Shown: positions 1,875 to 13,124, counted from the first letter of the stretch. The stretch: 14,774 nucleotides of DNA from Deinococcus lacus (GCF_042661385.1 NZ_JBHSWD010000004.1:1-14774); one strand, 5' to 3'. The notes: generated from the letters alone by a model not told the origin. Numbers and translations: made by a program.

Positions 1875-2770
1875 TTGGAAACTTACTAAAGCGCGCAGCA
1901 CCAACGCACTTTGCTACTAAATATGAGCTAGGCCATGACCGCGCCTTTCATTTGTTAGAGGCTCGGCGCGGGCGCGGGAAGTCCTACACAATGGCTTATT
2001 GGGCGCTGAAAGTTGCACGTAAGAAAGTGCCAGTTGTGGCAAACTTCCATTTTAATCATGACTGGCTGGCGCGGCAACTCGTTAAAGACAAAGTATTTAA
2101 GTCTATAGACGAAGCATTAGACTGGTGCGCTGAGAATATCCGCTTCGTTAATACTTGGGACGAAATTATGCTTTCTTATGACTGCCTAATCCTGTTGGAT
2201 GAGGTCAATAGGCTCTTTGACTCTCAGGACCGCTCTAAGGATGAAAAAGCTCCAAAAGTTGTTTTTGAATGGCTGCAACTCTCGCGCCGTAATCGTATTA
2301 CGCTCGTGTTTGCCGCTCAATCTATGGACTGGTTAACTCCGCGTGTCCGTCAATTGTTTGACAATCTCTGGCGTGCTAAGAAAGAGCTTTATCCAAAAGG
2401 CAGGCTACGCGGCCAAATTAAACAGTTTTGGCTGTATGGTGCTGATCCGTGGTCTAAAGGTTTAAATGCTGGCGTAGTACGCGATGCTGACTATAAAGCG
2501 ACGATTCCATTTGATGCCGCTATTTTTAGGCTTTACGACACGTTTGAGCGTATACAGGCTATTCCGAATGAGTCTAGTTTTGCTCGTTTCTACGATATTT
2601 ATGAATATCAGTTAGCAAATGGGATTGTTCCGCCGCCGCCTGCTCCGCGCCCGCGTGGCCTAACTCATGCTGAGTATGAGGCGCTGTGGGAGGACTGCCA
2701 CGCGCGTGTGGCCGAACCAGTGAGCGCCGTGCGCGAACAGGTGAGGCCTCGTGTGCGTGAGGTGGTATGA
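1871..2770 (+). CDS. Zot/pI-like P-loop morphogenesis ATPase (299 aa), no TM segment detectable
   Basis: Walker A-like ARRGRGKS and Walker B-like CLILLDEV are present. The gene is in the canonical position after gIII/gVI. The C-terminus is Pro/Arg-rich (PPPPAPRPRG) rather than hydrophobic. Confidence 0.6.
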   Translation: MIGNLLKRAAPTHFATKYELGHDRAFHLLEARRGRGKSYTMAYWALKVARKKVPVVANFHFNHDWLARQLVKDKVFKSIDEALDWCAENIRFVNTWDEIMLSYDCLILLDEVNRLFDSQDRSKDEKAPKVVFEWLQLSRRNRITLVFAAQSMDWLTPRVRQLFDNLWRAKKELYPKGRLRGQIKQFWLYGADPWSKGLNAGVVRDADYKATIPFDAAIFRLYDTFERIQAIPNESSFARFYDIYEYQLANGIVPPPPAPRPRGLTHAEYEALWEDCHARVAEPVSAVREQVRPRVREVV

Positions 2771-2855: not shown

Positions 2856-4307
2856 GTGATGGACTCAGACGCAACTGGCAGCATACGCATAGTTAACGAG
2901 GTTATAGACTCTCTGGACGTTCGCGTTTCGCGGCATATGCAACCTAGTCGCTGGATGCTGGACCAGGCGCGGGTTTGGCGTCTCTATATTGAGCAATGGG
3001 AGTCTGCGACGACTGAGCCGCTGTACTGTCAACTAGGGGAGATTGGGAGTTTCCGGCTGAAGGTCGGCGGGCGGCCACCATATGAGTTCGTGTTGTTCAA
3101 TCCGCAGATTTGCGACATCCGGATTTGGAATCCTGGCCGTTGGGATGGCAAAGCTGCTGGGCAGACTGGTCAGTTGTTTGTCTCGTTCCGCTCCGTCTTT
3201 CTCCAGCGCTACGGGCTGCACGGTGCGCGGCGCATTATCCGCGAGCTGGTGGAGTTGCTCGGCGTCTCCGATCCGGCCAACGACCACGGGCCGGAGTTTG
3301 ATCGTATTTCACGGATTGACCTGGCGGTGGATACTCAGGAGGAGCGTGGCATGCTCTGGGCCGACCTGGACGCGTTCGTCTGTCGCTCCCGCATCCTGGA
3401 TACTTGGACCACGGTCACGCCGCAGGACATGACCAATATGCTAGAGCGCTCCATGCTAGAGGAGCTATTCCCGATGGACTCCGATCCGCATTTGCCGACA
3501 GTGCGTGCGCTGGCTCGTGCGGCGTCTGCCTGCATCACGGATTTCACACGTCAAGCCCTGGTGGACCTGGAACAGTATGGAGAGGCTAATCTCTCTCGTG
3601 TTGTTACCAAGAGTAGAACACCGCAAACCATTTATTTTGGCCGTTTTGGTTCAGAACTCTACGCACGCCGATATAATAAACTCGGTTCACTGGCTATACA
3701 GAATAAGCTGTATATGTTAGAGATTTGGCAGCAAAACGGTTGGGATTGCGAGAGTCCTGTTATCCGTACTGAGTTTAGCATGTCCGGCGATTTCCTAAAA
3801 AACTATATTCTGCCAGAAACATCAACCGGCGAAAATCTAGAAATAGATGCCCGTGATCTTGATTTAATAGAAGTAAGGATACCTTATATCTGGTCCTACT
3901 TAACTAAGAAGTGGCTCCGCTTCACTGAGCCTAAAGGACAGAATGTTAAGCGCTGGAAAATTAACAGTGTTTGGGCTGAGATTCAGACCGCTTTCAGTGC
4001 TTACAAGATGCCTTTCGGCGTCCGTGATCTTTCGCGTAGTATTCCGAGAGAGGACATCCATCTAGTTAAACAATCGCGCGGCTGTAATGTGACGGTTGCG
4101 GCGCTTAGATTTGCTGCCAATCCAGCACAAAAACCAACAGACGTGCTTGCTGATCTATTTGAAAGTATGATTAATGCTATGGAGGCTGATGGTTTCCTTG
4201 AAGATGTAGAGAACAGAATGCTAGAATTAGGCATAGATGCCTATACAGATACGTGTCTAACATCTATGTTCAGAGCTGAGAAAATGAAGGAGGGTTATGG
4301 AAGTTAA
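2856..4307 (+). CDS. Rolling-circle replication initiator, Rep_trans (RstA/pT181 RepC-like) family, 483 aa
   Basis: Motifs recalled from the Rep_trans family are present: RIDLAVD, TIYFGRFGSELYARRYNK and VIRTEFSMSG. An AGGAG at 2844-2848 precedes the GTG 2856 / ATG 2859 start. Confidence 0.75.
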   Translation: MMDSDATGSIRIVNEVIDSLDVRVSRHMQPSRWMLDQARVWRLYIEQWESATTEPLYCQLGEIGSFRLKVGGRPPYEFVLFNPQICDIRIWNPGRWDGKAAGQTGQLFVSFRSVFLQRYGLHGARRIIRELVELLGVSDPANDHGPEFDRISRIDLAVDTQEERGMLWADLDAFVCRSRILDTWTTVTPQDMTNMLERSMLEELFPMDSDPHLPTVRALARAASACITDFTRQALVDLEQYGEANLSRVVTKSRTPQTIYFGRFGSELYARRYNKLGSLAIQNKLYMLEIWQQNGWDCESPVIRTEFSMSGDFLKNYILPETSTGENLEIDARDLDLIEVRIPYIWSYLTKKWLRFTEPKGQNVKRWKINSVWAEIQTAFSAYKMPFGVRDLSRSIPREDIHLVKQSRGCNVTVAALRFAANPAQKPTDVLADLFESMINAMEADGFLEDVENRMLELGIDAYTDTCLTSMFRAEKMKEGYGS

Positions 4308-4533
4308 AAAGTCTAATGTGAAGAGAGGGTATTTATTTCTTGTCTTTATCTTTTTCATCGCATTACAAATAGACCGTCATAAAGTTTTGCTTAGTAACTT
4401 AATTACAGATATTTATGATGCATATCCTGTAACTTTATCGTTACTTATTATTGTGTTGGGCATGATACTGTTTATTTCGTCTGGGAGAGTTTTCCGCCAG
4501 TATCTCAAAGATATGCTCTATGGTGATTTGTAG
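4297..4533 (+). CDS. 78-aa two-TM membrane protein of unknown function (AT-rich accessory gene)
   Basis: A strong SD (AAGGAGG) sits about 4288-4294, and the start overlaps the Rep stop. There are two hydrophobic segments (YLFLVFIFFIAL, VTLSLLIIVLGMILFI). GC is about 32% by hand count. Confidence 0.6.
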   Translation: MEVKKSNVKRGYLFLVFIFFIALQIDRHKVLLSNLITDIYDAYPVTLSLLIIVLGMILFISSGRVFRQYLKDMLYGDL

Positions 4534-4549
4534 ATTTTTAGGGGGTTGT

Positions 4550-4753
4550 ATGCAGACACAAAATTGGATTTGTCCAGAGTGCGGTGAGTTAGTAGATTTT
4601 GTGCTAGTGCAGCGGTTTGGCGGCGGTTTCTGCGCCTATGAGTGTCCGCGTTGTACCGTTGGCTCCTCCCTCCCTGACTGGTTGGAACACAATCCCGACC
4701 AGCCACCAGGCGCTCACCCTGAGTTACGTGAACCTGGTCCATCCATTCTCTAG
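4550..4753 (+). CDS. 67-aa zinc-ribbon-like protein (CPEC...CPRC), unknown function
   Basis: The ATG at 4550 is preceded by AGGGGG, so it is preferred over the 4520 start given by the ORF track. The CxxC-x19-CxxxCxxC spacing fits a zinc ribbon. A terminator-like hairpin follows. Confidence 0.5.
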   Translation: MQTQNWICPECGELVDFVLVQRFGGGFCAYECPRCTVGSSLPDWLEHNPDQPPGAHPELREPGPSIL

Positions 4754-4778: not shown

Positions 4779-4805
4779 CCCCCCTGCAGTTTCGCGGGGG
4801 TTTTT
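4779..4805 (+). terminator. Terminator-like hairpin: C6 ... G5 stem followed by T5
   Basis: The sequence is CCCCCCTGCAGTTTCGCGGGGGTTTTT, immediately after the zinc-ribbon ORF. The C-run is 6 nt here and 5 nt in copy 2. Confidence 0.4.
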
Positions 4806-4937
4806 GCTGTCTGGCGCGGCGCTGCCGGAGTTCCCCAGCCTGGATAACAAGGGGGTGCTAATTACCACGCCGCTCGCGTAGGCTCCTGGGTTGCTTTGAC
4901 CTGGTGCATCGCTGACAGGTGTCCAGGGCGCTAGACC

Positions 4938-5005
4938 TTAATCAATGCTGTCCCGTTCTCTGGTTGACGGCCTGGGCAGGCTGATTTTTGGCTAGACATT
5001 GATTA
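4938..5005. repeat. Inverted repeat TAATCAATG / CATTGATTA flanked by GCTAGAC direct repeats
   Basis: The 9-bp arms are at 4939-4947 and 4997-5005. GCTAGAC occurs at about 4931 and 4991. Confidence 0.6.
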
Positions 5006-5071
5006 GGGGCTAGCGGGCGCACAGCGCCGGACCCTGGACGCCGTACGCAACGCTAAAATGTGCGGGCGTAG

Positions 5072-5107
5072 CCCGGAGGAGTGGCCGTTTTTTGCCAGTC
5101 CTCCGGG
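5072..5107. other. Long intergenic hairpin (9 + 4 bp stem, T6-containing loop)
   Basis: The sequence reads CCCGGAGGA-G-TGGC-CGTTTTTT-GCCA-G-TCCTCCGGG. It is a candidate ssDNA structural signal. Confidence 0.55.
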
Positions 5108-5196
5108 CCTGCCCAGCGGCGAGCGTGTCTGTTCTGCCTGGCTCTGGCTGGCCTACTGTTGGCGCATGGGGGCAGCCGCTACCGTCTCCGACGTTG

Positions 5197-5534
5197 CTGG
5201 TCGCGAAGCGTCAATTCCGGTTAGGCTTCTCCGGGCATGCAGGTGACGGGTCAAGGGTTTAGGTTGTCAAGGGTGGCCGAAGGCCAGGCCGCGAAGCGGG
5301 CCGCGAAGCGCCCTTGACAAGCCGCGAAGCGCCCTTGACGCGGCACAGACGGAGTTTTTCGCTGAGTGCGCTATCTGGTCGCGAAGCGTCAATTCCGGCT
5401 AGGCTTCTCCGGGCATGCAGGTGACGGGTCAAGGGTTTAGGTTGTCAAGGGTGGCCGAAGGCCAGGCCGCGAAGCGGGCCGCGGAGCGCCCTTGACAAGC
5501 CGCGAAGCGCCCTTGACGCGGCACAAACGGAGTT
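5197..5534. repeat. Direct duplication, period 178 bp (about 160 bp conserved per copy: 5197-5356 and 5375-5534), with internal iterons and nested inverted repeats; candidate origin region
   Basis: The two copies differ at only a few positions (ccggTtagg vs ccggCtagg, gcgAagc vs gcgGagc, cacaGac vs cacaAac). Each contains 2x GTCAAGGG, 2x CCCTTGAC, GGCCGAAGGCC and 4 GCG(A/G)AGC motifs. Confidence 0.85.
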
Positions 5535-5639
5535 CTGTCGCTACTTGCGCCGCTCCATCATCCATCCAGCTCCAACAGCCACGCCGCACAGAAACGGCCA
5601 GATGCTGTCTAGGATGCTCTGCCACAGTATCTCTAGCAT

Positions 5640-5903
5640 TTAGCGTTCTCCTGTGCTATGTTCCGAGCATAATAACCTAATATGTTTTTTATCTCGCTCA
5701 ACTAGGCCCTGTTGCCGCAACTCGCGTAGGCCGTCCTTAAACGTGCCGTATGAGATGCCTACGGCGTCGGCTAGCTCCTCCTGGTTTGTGTATTCCACCT
5801 CTCCCCTGGCGATCAGAAACCAGTAGACGGCGGCGGCGCTGGGCTTCACAAATAGCAGGCTATCCCCTGCCCCCTTGTATTCTTGTAATTGGATGATTAT
5901 CAT
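5640..5903 (-). CDS. 87-aa winged-helix/HTH transcriptional regulator (putative phage repressor, analogous in position to CTXphi RstR)
   Basis: It is the only convincing minus-strand gene and is divergent from the structural operon. It has an HTH-like segment NQEELADAVGISYGTFKDGLRELRQQGLVER. Confidence 0.6.
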   Translation of the reverse strand: MIIIQLQEYKGAGDSLLFVKPSAAAVYWFLIARGEVEYTNQEELADAVGISYGTFKDGLRELRQQGLVERDKKHIRLLCSEHSTGER

Positions 5904-5920
5904 CTAACTGGATGATATCC
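5875..5920. promoter_or_regulatory. Divergent promoter/operator region
   Basis: On the + strand, TTGTAT (5875-5880) is followed after 17 nt by TATCAT (5898-5903). On the - strand there is a TATCAT (complement of 5912-5917). The palindrome GATGAT-T-ATCATC (5892-5904) overlaps the regulator start codon. TGGATGAT is directly repeated at 5890 and 5909. Confidence 0.35.
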
Positions 5921-5942
5921 AACTAAACCAAAGGTGGTGGAA

Positions 5943-7307: not shown

Positions 7308-7441
7308 TGGACAGCATTGTGACCGCGATAACTGATATTAGTTCTCAGGCTGGACAGATTCAAACGGCCATGCTCGTTATTCTGGGCGTGATTGTTACAA
7401 TTAGTATCGCCTATAGCATCGTGAAGGGATTTAGGGCATGA
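7307..7441 (+). CDS. 44-aa leaderless coat-like protein (Pf3-coat-like architecture)
   Basis: Hand translation gives MDSIVTAITDISSQAGQIQTAMLVILGVIVTISIAYSIVKGFRA. It has an acidic N-terminus, a TM core and a basic C-terminus. It has a TAATG overlap upstream, and the gIII start ATG (7438-7440) overlaps its TGA stop (7439-7441). Confidence 0.5.
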   Translation: MDSIVTAITDISSQAGQIQTAMLVILGVIVTISIAYSIVKGFRA

Positions 7442-9122
7442 ATGCGGTGGCGCGGCGTGCTGCCGCATTTGGACTCTCCGCGCTACTGATCGGCTCTCTG
7501 CCTGCTCAGGCCCAGCCGTCTGGCGGCGGCATGGCTGGCCGTATCGCTGGCGCAGTCCGCGCGGCTGGTAGTGATGCGCTCGCCGGACTCGGCAAGGCCA
7601 CGCCGGGCAATTTAGCCGGTATGGCTGGCGGCAGGATTAATTTTCCTGCTGCTGGCAAATTTTTTGTTCGCGGGGGACTGTGGGCGTTGGCAGGTAGCCT
7701 AGTTTCGGACGCTATTAGTGATTGCATTGCTAGTAGCGAATGCCGTGGCGAGGTTGCTGACTGGTTCATGGGCCGTAATGAAACAGGGGTTGGGAATATG
7801 AGTTACCTACAGTAATTATTGAAATGAATGAATGCGGATATATTGGATATACACCTTTTGATAAGAAGCTGGCTGGTGATGCTAATAATCCTCTTATTAT
7901 TAAGTATCGTGATTATAAATATGAAGTTGTGGGGGTAGGGAAATCTAGATATGATATTCCTGTTACAGAGACTACAAAAATTGATAATTTTGTTGCAAAC
8001 TATAAAAGAGATAGGGCGATACAGTTAAATAAGGGGGTATGCGGGCGGAACAAAACTCTTTCTGAGTTGTCTCCTGGCGCAAAGTCACAGATAATAGAGG
8101 CAATAGCAAATTATATTACTAATAATCCAGAGAAAGCGCGGCCATACCTAGAAAAGCCTGTTAACGATAATGAATGGGCTGACAGTCCTTTTGAACGGCC
8201 TGATTTAGATACTGACGCTGACGGCTACACTGACGGCGATGAGGCAGGCAGCGGCAGCAATCCAGACGATCCCGATAGTGTGCCTGAAAAACCGTCCGAT
8301 AAAGATGGGGACGGTGTTCCTGACAAAGACGATGACGATGATGATAATGACGGCATTCCTGATAAGGATGACTCTGCGCCAAATGATCCCGATTCCGGCG
8401 GGCCAGACTCTGACGGAGACGGCAAATCTGACGCAGTGGATACTGATGATGACAATGACGGTATTCCGGACTCTAAGGATGATGATGATGATGATGATGG
8501 CATCCCAGATGACTGTGAAGATGCCGAGAATCCTGAAGAGTGTGCCGCTGCTGATGATGATGACGGCGATAAGCCGTGTGAAGAAGGCCAAGAAAAAGGC
8601 GAAAACGGCGAGTGTGCGCCTCCAAAAGATGATGGATGTCCAGAAGGCGAGGAAAAGGGCGAGGATGGCGAGTGCGCCGCGCCTCCTGATGATGGAGAGT
8701 GCCCTGAAGGCCAGGAGAAAGGAAAAGACGGAAAATGTGCGCCTCCTCCTCCTGGCTCCTCGCCTCCTGATGACTCGTGCGGAACATTTAGTTACAAGCG
8801 CCTGCTGGCCTATCCTGGTTCCTTTGTCAAAGACTTGTTTGTGCCTTGCGCTCCTGTAAAAGAAATGTTCACGCCATTAATTGCAGTGGCTAAAACTAAA
8901 TTTCCATTTTCTGTTGCTATGAATCTGCGCGGCTGGTTCCATGTTGGCGGCGGTGGCGGCGGAAATGGCAGCGATTTGCCTGACTCTATTGGTCCGATTC
9001 CATTAACATGGACGTTTTTAACTCCGCTCTGGACAACGATTAAAACGCTTGTTGGCGTTGCGCTTTACGCTGCTTTTGGCTACTGGCTTCTAGATCGTTT
9101 CACTCCGAGGACTCAGATATGA
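7438..9122 (+). pseudogene. Copy 2 of the gIII-like gene, frameshifted (125-aa 5' ORF 7438..7815 plus 3' remainder ending 9122)
   Basis: The G4 run at 7786-7789 corresponds to G5 at 298-302 in copy 1. Translation is identical to copy 1 on both sides of the shift. No SD precedes the internal ATG at 7824. Confidence 0.7.
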
Positions 9123-12681: not shown

Positions 12682-13019
12682 CTGGTCGCGAAGCGTCAAT
12701 TCCGGTTAGGCTTCTCCGGGCATGCAGGTGACGGGTCAAGGGTTTAGGTTGTCAAGGGTGGCCGAAGGCCAGGCCGCGAAGCGGGCCGCGAAGCGCCCTT
12801 GACAAGCCGCGAAGCGCCCTTGACGCGGCACAGACGGAGTTTTTCGCTGAGTGCGCTATCTGGTCGCGAAGCGTCAATTCCGGCTAGGCTTCTCCGGGCA
12901 TGCAGGTGACGGGTCAAGGGTTTAGGTTGTCAAGGGTGGCCGAAGGCCAGGCCGCGAAGCGGGCCGCGGAGCGCCCTTGACAAGCCGCGAAGCGCCCTTG
13001 ACGCGGCACAAACGGAGTT
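12682..13019. repeat. Copy 2 of the 178-bp-period direct duplication
   Basis: It is identical to 5197..5534, including the internal variant positions. Confidence 0.85.
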
Positions 13020-13124
13020 CTGTCGCTACTTGCGCCGCTCCATCATCCATCCAGCTCCAACAGCCACGCCGCACAGAAACGGCCAGATGCTGTCTAGGAT
13101 GCTCTGCCACAGTATCTCTAGCAT

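Follow-up and report, generated by a model that had tools for sequence, protein, structure and literature searches.

The 14,774-nucleotide (nt) stretch of Deinococcus lacus DNA analysed here (GCF_042661385.1 NZ_JBHSWD010000004.1:1-14774, hereafter the window) holds a small filamentous-phage-like element whose main non-coding gap carries a dense array of GCGAAGC mini-hairpins, all on one strand. We describe this array as a nested and tandemly duplicated structural module, follow the module into other phages, plasmids and chromosomes, and tentatively favour its being a folded plus-strand signal for priming of the complementary strand, akin to single-stranded DNA (ssDNA) promoters, a reading to which we give somewhat less than an even chance.

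The window is a head-to-tail pair of one 7,485-nt sequence, and the sole differences between the two copies are three single-base homopolymer indels (at 298, 1858 and 4779 versus 7785, 9344 and 12264). This doubling is compatible with two turns around a circular genome, or with a tandem dimer or concatemer, and the homopolymer differences are probably long-read errors. They alter reading frames: the open reading frame (ORF) at 43-1635 is intact in the first copy and broken into 7438-7815 and 7824-9122 in the second.

The element encodes a Zot-like assembly ATPase and a 483-aa protein for which Pfam and NCBIfam searches gave no match, and whose predicted structure resembles RepDE. The 56 homologues of the latter come mostly from metagenomic contigs below 10 kb, and judging from the model it appears to represent an uncharacterised Rep family of small filamentous-phage-like elements. 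A small winged-helix protein is encoded on the opposite strand, whilst nearly all remaining ORFs lie on the + strand. Considering the Zot-like ATPase, the Rep_trans fold and this orientation of the ORFs, we treat the element as filamentous-phage-like and rolling-circle; since both an assembly ATPase and a Rep_trans-like initiator are encoded, a single-stranded stage of the plus strand is to be expected, and by analogy with known inoviruses the + strand would be the one packaged. Searches of cultured phages with the whole genome and with the 1.1-kb non-coding region gave no match. The features of the element are as follows.

1871-2770: Zot-like assembly ATPase (Pfam Zot, E 1.5e-5; PHROG 197)
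2856-4307: 483-aa Rep_trans-like protein (AlphaFold model, mean predicted local distance difference test score 84; Foldseek match to RepDE, 4cwc/4cwe, E 6e-6, probability 1.00)
4781-4810, + strand: terminator-like hairpin and T run, closing the + strand operon ahead of the structured region
4818-4862, + strand: conserved origin-like motif CCCCAGCCTGGATAACAAGGGGGTG, outside the GNA array
4920-5040, + strand: third, diverged module (M0), stem GTCCAGGG/CCCTGGAC (inverted repeats I1 and I11; predicted fold)
5071-5108, + strand: 15-bp hairpin, T-rich in its loop, separating M0 from the repeat units (inverted repeat I2, 93% complementary; present in the fold)
5197-5374, + strand: tandem unit 1, 178 nt, comprising two nested modules and, at 5202-5210, a separate CGCGAAGCG mini-hairpin
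5250-5339, + strand: outer module of unit 1, GTCAAGGG-TTTAGGTT-(inner module)-AAGC-CGC(GAA)GCG-CCCTTGAC (inverted repeats I3 and I24; minimum-energy and centroid folds)
5264-5320, + strand: inner module of unit 1, 10-bp stem TTGTCAAGGG/CCCTTGACAA (inverted repeat I15, 100% complementary; folds; cloverleaf scan)
5375-5552, + strand: tandem unit 2, repeating unit 1 and fading past about 5542
5428-5517, + strand: outer module of unit 2 (inverted repeats, fold, cloverleaf scan)
5442-5498, + strand: inner module of unit 2, third loop GGA (CGCGGAGCG, 5480-5488)
5640-5903, strand opposite to the main genes: small winged-helix protein
12682-13037, + strand: second genome copy of both tandem units, offset by +7485

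A nested and duplicated array on one strand

The module has a simple general plan, in which a stem of 8-10 bp (GTCAAGGG/CCCTTGAC) surrounds a junction of two to three mini-hairpins capped by C(GNA)G. In the inner module of unit 1 these hairpins are GGCC(GAA)GGCC, GGCCGC(GAA)GCGGGCC and CGC(GAA)GCG, and the whole is enclosed in turn by the outer module. A tandem-repeat finder describes 5197-5542 as 1.9 copies of a 178-nt unit, 97% identical and with a 21-nt internal repeat; such a nested and tandem layout suggests a recent expansion.

Each motif listed in the first-pass annotation of this DNA, which had been made from the sequence alone, was recovered: the seven + strand GCGAAGC sites (5203, 5291, 5303, 5324, 5381, 5469 and 5502), the GCGGAGC variant at 5481 (within CGCGGAGCG, 5480-5488) and both copies of GGCCGAAGGCC (5275-5285 and 5453-5463). 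Likewise, as that annotation had it, the motifs do lie on the strand of nearly all genes; the genome in question carries a Zot-like gene and encodes a rolling-circle Rep. Together the C(GNA)G mini-hairpins (CGCGAAGCG, CGCGGAGCG and GGCCGAAGGCC) number ten per pair of units, exclusively on the + strand.

Across the window GCGAAGC occurs 16 times on the + strand and never on the - strand, i.e. 8 and 0 per genome, as the window comprises two genome copies. The chance expectation is 3.69 +/- 1.98 per window, and none of 200 shuffles reached 16. Owing to the 178-nt duplication and the 21-nt internal repeat, the seven sites amount to about three or four independent ones. With the second unit deleted, GCGAAGC still stands at 5 on the + strand and 0 on the other (4 of 1000 dinucleotide shuffles reach 5), and the five C(GNA)G hairpins with 3-bp stems that then fall within 150 nt were matched by none of 1000 shuffles. 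Clustering and strand bias thus exceed chance even when the duplication is discounted: the annotators' claim of an array far beyond chance survives deduplication, whereas the array proves to be a larger nested module, tandemly duplicated, instead of a series of independent 7-mers.

The + strand is also the better folder. With DNA parameters in Vienna, unit 1 folds at -47.8 kcal/mol on the + strand (z -4.1) against -37.4 on the - strand (z -1.9); with flanks the values are -75.1 and -58.6 kcal/mol, and for M0 they are -86.7 and -75.9 kcal/mol. The four substitutions that distinguish unit 1 from unit 2 (5221, 5306, 5348 and 5357) each fall at a predicted unpaired position, and one of them turns a GAA loop into GGA, preserving GNA. 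Within the stems, TTGACA (5314-5319) and TTGACG (5335-5340) pair with their 5' arms. M0, about 200 nt upstream of the tandem units, has a long first hairpin and a last hairpin GGCGC(ACA)GCGCC followed by GGA, and its stem bears a compensatory double change (A.T to C.G) that preserves pairing; judged by its grammar, M0 would belong to the same family.

A module family across phages, plasmids and chromosomes

The exact 17-mer CGCGAAGCGCCCTTGAC occurs at more than 119 places in bacterial assemblies sampled at one genome per species. The bacterial copies analysed here are those among the matches listed for this 17-mer, of which about two thirds share the module architecture; they belong mostly to Actinomycetota and Hyphomicrobiales, with single copies in Myxococcales and Thermaerobacter, and no Deinococcus record is among them. 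About 50 actinobacterial copies have the three-hairpin layout of the inner module at 5264-5320, and the copies in Hyphomicrobiales and in the viral contig L006 (contigs and loci outside the window bear L numbers) follow the grammar of the outer module, i.e. GTCAAGGG, TTTA..., hairpin CGCGAAGCG and CCCTTGAC. Rfam 15 holds no corresponding family (best match E 0.72, far under the gathering score, and none overlapping the modules in 12 other loci), and we found no description of the module in the literature, searching by sequence and by topic. A 43-nt consensus found no match among cultured phages, the query being probably too short or filtered.

As the number of hairpins differs among copies, a structure-based scan took the place of a covariance model; MAFFT failed on the variable inner hairpins, so that loops were tabulated with a custom parser and pairs were counted on closing and outer stems only. 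In 80 distinct bacterial copies, 75 of the 115 hairpins left unconstrained by the search carry GNA loops (GAA 32, GCA 15, GGA 14, GTA 14) and 104 are closed by C-G, with differing stem sequences. That GNA is kept whilst N and the stems vary, and that the + strand folds better than its complement, upholds the earlier view of GCGAAGC as a hairpin with a GNA loop. Covariation is evident in the outer stems, where pairing holds in 87% of cells, a value reached by none of 500 shuffles and compared with 32-51% in slid-partner controls, and compensatory changes are found at all ten variable outer-stem pairs. Mispairs in these stems are overwhelmingly G.T (40) rather than A.C (5), an excess which argues that the fold is selected on the GNA strand alone, be it as ssDNA or as RNA, and not as symmetric duplex DNA.

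Is the module found in other filamentous phages, as the idea of an inovirus signal would have it? Among 39 loci encoding relatives of the Rep protein, L136 and L166 carry it on the strand that encodes Rep, within the gap that follows rep, as GTCAAGG-CGC(GCA)GCG-CCC(GTA)GGG-CCTTGAC in L136 and as two GCGAAGC between GTCAAGGG and CCCTTGAC in L166; no such structure was seen on the opposite strand in the roughly 200 kb of these loci scanned. Most of the relatives lack the module, which therefore cannot be an indispensable origin for this Rep lineage. A looser pattern found it in 43 viral contigs. We looked at 12 small module-bearing contigs (5.9-12.7 kb), of which six have a Zot-like gene, one a pI-like gene and one a gene for a replication protein. 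Each of these eight carries the module on its marker-gene strand, and in four of them it tops an imperfect hairpin of roughly 150-200 nt. The inovirus-signal idea hence holds insofar as the module recurs in other filamentous phages and on the expected strand, both in these eight contigs and in the two Rep relatives, but it fails on specificity, for tailed phages, plasmids and chromosomes have the module too. The exact 17-mer had been tried on viral contigs as well, with 12 matches, 11 of them chance occurrences within genes and the one in L006 a true module.

Three of the Zot-bearing contigs (L176 at about 2300-2330, L181 and L183) share GAGCGGTTTTG(A/T)..TTGGTTTTG immediately 3' of the module-capped long hairpin, which may be an origin motif of their own. 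L176 has weak end similarity to Pseudomonas Pf-like phages, and one weak relative of this contig, the Pf-like Pseudomonas phage OR621022, is without the module.

L006, a fragment of a tailed phage, has its module upstream of terL, the large terminase gene. In two plasmids, Arthrobacter pZXY25 (L213, 3501-3550) and a Paenarthrobacter plasmid (L214), the module lies about 110 nt upstream of parA; TTGACG-16-CACACT comes next, together with an outer stem that pairs again. On the other side of the module in these parA plasmids, at a distance of about 210 nt, a leftward operon begins, and either direction of transcription, from the duplex or from the single strand, is possible.

The chromosomal copies have no preferred neighbour: the 115 adjoining genes fall into 114 Pfam families, none of them dominant. 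They face mostly the 3' ends of genes, without orientation toward downstream genes, and in both respects behave like dispersed palindromic repeats; relative to the upstream gene they are sense-oriented in 10 cases versus 4, and they also occur between convergent genes. An attempted linkage to ssb gave one copy in a Frpo-like arrangement (L110) and one not (L055). Among the matches listed, two Hyphomicrobiales assemblies account for at least 20 loci in one case and at least 8 in the other, in palindromic elements of about 190 nt, and several Actinomycetota likewise have many dispersed copies.

A possible priming signal and its alternatives

The 3' arm of the module, CCCTTGAC, contains TTGAC; housekeeping sigma factors have TTGAC(n) as their -35 consensus. 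In 58 actinobacterial-type copies, a hexamer of the form xAxxxT peaks at spacers of 16 and 17 nt (15 and 14 copies), other offsets having 0-5 and mostly 0-1. Pairing probabilities downstream of TTGAC show the 3' arm paired to +18, open from +19 to +26, and then re-paired, and this profile emerges independently in copies of the actinobacterial and the Hyphomicrobiales type. Among viral contigs, the GNA side bears a -10-like hexamer in 17 of 37 distinct copies, versus 6 of 37 for the other side, and some contigs have textbook promoters after the module, for example TTGACA-17-TATAAT in L190 and TTGACA-17-TACAAT in L209. In its layout the family combines a -35 and a spacer that are both duplex with a -10 that is already open, which is the design reported for ssDNA promoters such as Frpo (PMC12672017).

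We posit that in the rolling-circle plus strand, when single-stranded (and packaged, by analogy with inoviruses), the modules would snap into compact folds which should resist coating by single-strand-binding protein (SSB), the tight GNA caps excluding it. The stem of each fold would display TTGAC in double-stranded form, and host RNA polymerase holoenzyme, or possibly a primase, could be recruited to the folded DNA and lay a primer, thereby turning the incoming ssDNA into the replicative form. The array would then be a complementary- or minus-strand origin. Given the duplex TTGAC and the family-wide -35/-10 geometry we favour RNA polymerase as the ligand.

Several observations weigh against this scheme. 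By eye, no xAxxxT stands 15-18 nt after either TTGAC of the window, nor at this spacing in L136 or L166, and a consensus scan of the window gave no + strand promoter at the modules; the outer stem extends only about 7 bp beyond TTGAC before a 15-nt bulge, and M0, which retains its pairing, reads TGGACG and so has lost TTGAC. The module is missing from 36 of the 39 loci of Rep relatives (many of these loci are partial), and it also resides in tailed double-stranded DNA (dsDNA) phages and, as a multi-copy palindrome, at the 3' ends of chromosomal genes. The packaged strand is assigned by analogy, and a same-strand orientation is equally expected of an ordinary promoter serving plus-strand genes. 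It is the missing -10, the loss of TTGAC in M0, the many relatives without a module and the occurrence in dsDNA phages and chromosomes that hold our confidence where it is.

Several known systems resemble parts of this picture. The minus-strand origin of Ff (hairpins B and C, sigma-70 RNA polymerase) and the single-strand origins of rolling-circle plasmids (ssoA and others) are orientation-specific hairpins in a non-coding gap, at which host RNA polymerase is brought in and synthesises a primer. Our array shares with them the orientation-specific hairpins in the gap of a rolling-circle replicon and, on our reading, may share the role in priming; it differs in having no sequence resemblance, no recognised -10-like element or terminator-like motif in the window, and no counterpart in most relatives. 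An Ff-type packaging signal is likewise compatible in shape and strand. According to the relevant passages of a review, mini-hairpins bind SSB poorly and occur at the complementary-strand origin of phage G4, at ssiA of RSF1010 and at phage N4 promoters (PMC13037366); these passages do not mention phiX174, which the first-pass annotation had offered as a precedent. As described there, the hairpins of G4, ssiA and the N4 early promoters have sequences identical to those of the array (GCGAAGC, CCGAAGG and GCGGAGC) and mark the start points of a primase or polymerase on DNA that is single-stranded or extruded. They are single hairpins, whereas here two to three sit in a closed junction, nested and duplicated, and their enzymes (DnaG, RepB' and the N4 virion polymerase) are not known to apply to this array.

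In kind, the module comes closest to ssDNA promoters and origins. Such promoters, large stem-loops that rebuild the -35 and -10 boxes, include Frpo of F, at which DNA synthesis is primed as well (PMC12672017), together with ssi1-3 of ColIb-P9 and the pESBL classes 1-3; all are stem-loops of one strand with a duplex -35 and a -10. Like Frpo, the module family places a -35 in its stem, follows it with about 17 bp of spacer duplex and leaves the -10 region unpaired; unlike Frpo, it has a junction of GNA mini-hairpins at the apex and spans Actinomycetota, Alphaproteobacteria, a Deinococcus phage and tailed phages. The likeness drawn here is one of layout. In the window itself, the strand-specific stem-loop and the duplex -35-like hexamer are present, and a -10-like hexamer at 16-18 nt is absent.

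The chromosomal copies call to mind another class, the REP/BIME, MITE and PATE repeats, as they are multi-copy intergenic palindromes located mostly at gene 3' ends. Perhaps the module is simply a selfish or host-type palindromic repeat of this sort, lodged in dispensable non-coding phage DNA, self-nested and duplicated there, and without a role in the life cycle. The many loci in two Hyphomicrobiales assemblies would fit, as would the diversity of neighbouring genes, a module centre found in both orientations relative to asymmetric arms, an inverted pair of modules around a gene in L036 (below), the presence of the module in just 3 of about 40 phages of the Rep lineage, and the apparently recent nested and tandem expansion. 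We nevertheless regard such an origin as unlikely. The module differs from such repeats in a core kept across phyla, a promoter-like geometry would be unexpected of a purely selfish palindrome, the substitutions between units avoid paired positions, no target-site duplication is visible around the nested copy, and the families listed for the 115 neighbouring genes include no Y1/HUH transposase, which leaves no RAYT or IS200/IS605 TnpA association; the strand is moreover that of the marker gene in 11 of 11 filamentous-phage(-like) contigs, though a promoter predicts likewise. Were the module selfish after all, the spread of one core sequence across phyla would be striking in itself. Alternatively, the stable hairpins could stay free of phage SSB and mark the end of the plus strand at which virion assembly starts, in the manner of Ff hairpin A. 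Their strand specificity and very stable + strand folds in the main non-coding gap suit a packaging signal, as do the four other filamentous phages in which the module sits atop a hairpin of the Ff packaging-signal shape, and the poor binding of SSB to mini-hairpins described in a review (PMC13037366). We find this rather improbable, considering that the module is also present where filament assembly does not come into play (in tailed phages, plasmids and chromosomes), that the -35/-10-like geometry of the family has no part in packaging, and that most close relatives do without it.

Equally improbable in our estimation is an ordinary regulatory cassette acting as dsDNA, i.e. the upstream half of a sigma-70/sigma-A promoter, with TTGAC as its -35 and the palindrome tuning it through cruciform extrusion, supercoiling or a regulator. 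In the phage, transcription from such a promoter would run rightwards, in antisense through the winged-helix repressor gene and on to the structural genes. The canonical promoters of L190 and L209, the bias of -10-like hexamers to the GNA side and the positions upstream of terL and parA all speak for it; the want of a correctly spaced -10-like hexamer in the window, L136 and L166, the negative consensus scan of the window and the chromosomal copies without orientation toward downstream genes speak against it, and a duplex would need neither the G.T bias nor arms that re-pair beyond the -10 bubble. If the hairpins acted in a transcript, as a tail-less terminator or a 3' stabiliser of the upstream operon, selection on one strand would suit RNA as well as ssDNA, and the tendency of chromosomal copies to lie sense after the upstream gene or between convergent genes would be accounted for. 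This we consider very unlikely: structured RNAs usually prefer GNRA or UNCG tetraloops, no Rfam family matches, no U tract follows the modules, and the phage already has the terminator-like hairpin at 4781-4810 ahead of the region on the + strand. The review also treats C(GNA)G triloops as a hallmark of exceptionally stable DNA mini-hairpins (PMC13037366). Finally, the repeated CGCGAAGCGCCCTTGAC and GTCAAGGG could be iterons or a plus-strand origin, that is, duplex sites for Rep or the winged-helix protein, given that direct 21-nt repeats and inverted 8-mers adjoin both genes. Hardly anything commends this, since the conserved motif linked to rep is a different one (GGATAACAAGGGGGGTG, window 4835-4858), the inverted copies of GTCAAGGG carry no inverted GCGAAGC and every loop reads GNA on one strand, a duplicated nick site would be unstable, genomes without this Rep have the module, and conservation does not follow the Rep lineage (3 of about 40 loci).

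A better candidate for the plus-strand origin lies nearer rep. Nine aligned close relatives have TAACAAGGGGGGTG, flanks included, in invariant form downstream of rep, and the window copy (4845-4858) has one G fewer; the invariant motif as a whole, GGATAACAAGGGGG(G)TG, corresponds to window 4835-4858, with a C run in front. From this conservation the 4818-4862 motif is likely a plus-strand origin or Rep recognition site, and the GNA array is accordingly something other than the plus-strand origin; an origin or iteron reading of the GNA units was discarded on this account.

To return to priming on the folded plus strand, we could speculate that the stem with its C(GNA)G junction defines a new class of hairpin promoters or priming cassettes that is specific to single strands and crosses phyla, and that phages, plasmids and chromosomal repeats share in order to recruit housekeeping RNA polymerase to folded or extruded DNA, with the Deinococcus array as a nested and duplicated complementary-strand origin. 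We think this broader proposal possible but doubtful. Little is known of how complementary-strand synthesis begins in small ssDNA replicons beyond the E. coli models, and the ssDNA promoters in the literature that we surveyed come from a few conjugative plasmids of Gram-negative bacteria (F, ColIb-P9 and pESBL). A compact, recognisable module present in several lineages of filamentous phages, in plasmids, in tailed phages and in chromosomes of distant phyla would render the question of priming directly testable: it is short enough to be synthesised, its loops and stems suggest clean mutants, and its natural variants form a set of covariation data.

Variant elements and neighbouring features

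In the Hyphomicrobiales elements (L032 versus L035, and other loci of assemblies OZ244974 and OZ245032), the central module points one way whilst the asymmetric 10-nt bubble of the arms (CGCTTTTTTT versus AACACCTCCA) occurs both ways, a flip/flop arrangement reminiscent of parvovirus terminal repeats. The T-shaped, flip/flop inverted terminal repeats of adeno-associated virus and parvoviruses are similarly stems tipped with small internal palindromes, and the resemblance is confined to shape: here the genomes are circular and the sites internal, with no sign of hairpin-primed replication. Inverted pairs of modules occur elsewhere too. In L036 (Actinomadura), modules at 2460-2476 (- strand) and 4925-4941 (+ strand) stand on either side of a DUF222 gene, DUF222 being a Pfam domain of unknown function, and in the Kribbella contigs L065, L068 and L132 the inverted modules are about 850 nt apart.

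Many actinobacterial copies (among them those of L050, L059, L078, L036 and L040) have an extra hairpin, GGGCAGGC-GGA-GCCTGCCC, about 40-60 nt 5' of the module, together with a conserved asymmetric internal loop in the outer stem (AGAGG opposite GG); the long form of the element thus has further conserved parts.

Within the Deinococcus element, a 77-aa ORF with two CxxC pairs (zinc-ribbon-like) at 4520-4753 directly follows rep and overlaps a 78-aa ORF at 4297-4533. On the other side of the array, 2.2 copies of the 19-nt tandem repeat TAACTGGATGATTATCAAC (5886-5926) overlap both the beginning of the winged-helix gene and the 30-nt gap that separates it from the first + strand gene; this repeat looks like an operator for the winged-helix protein.

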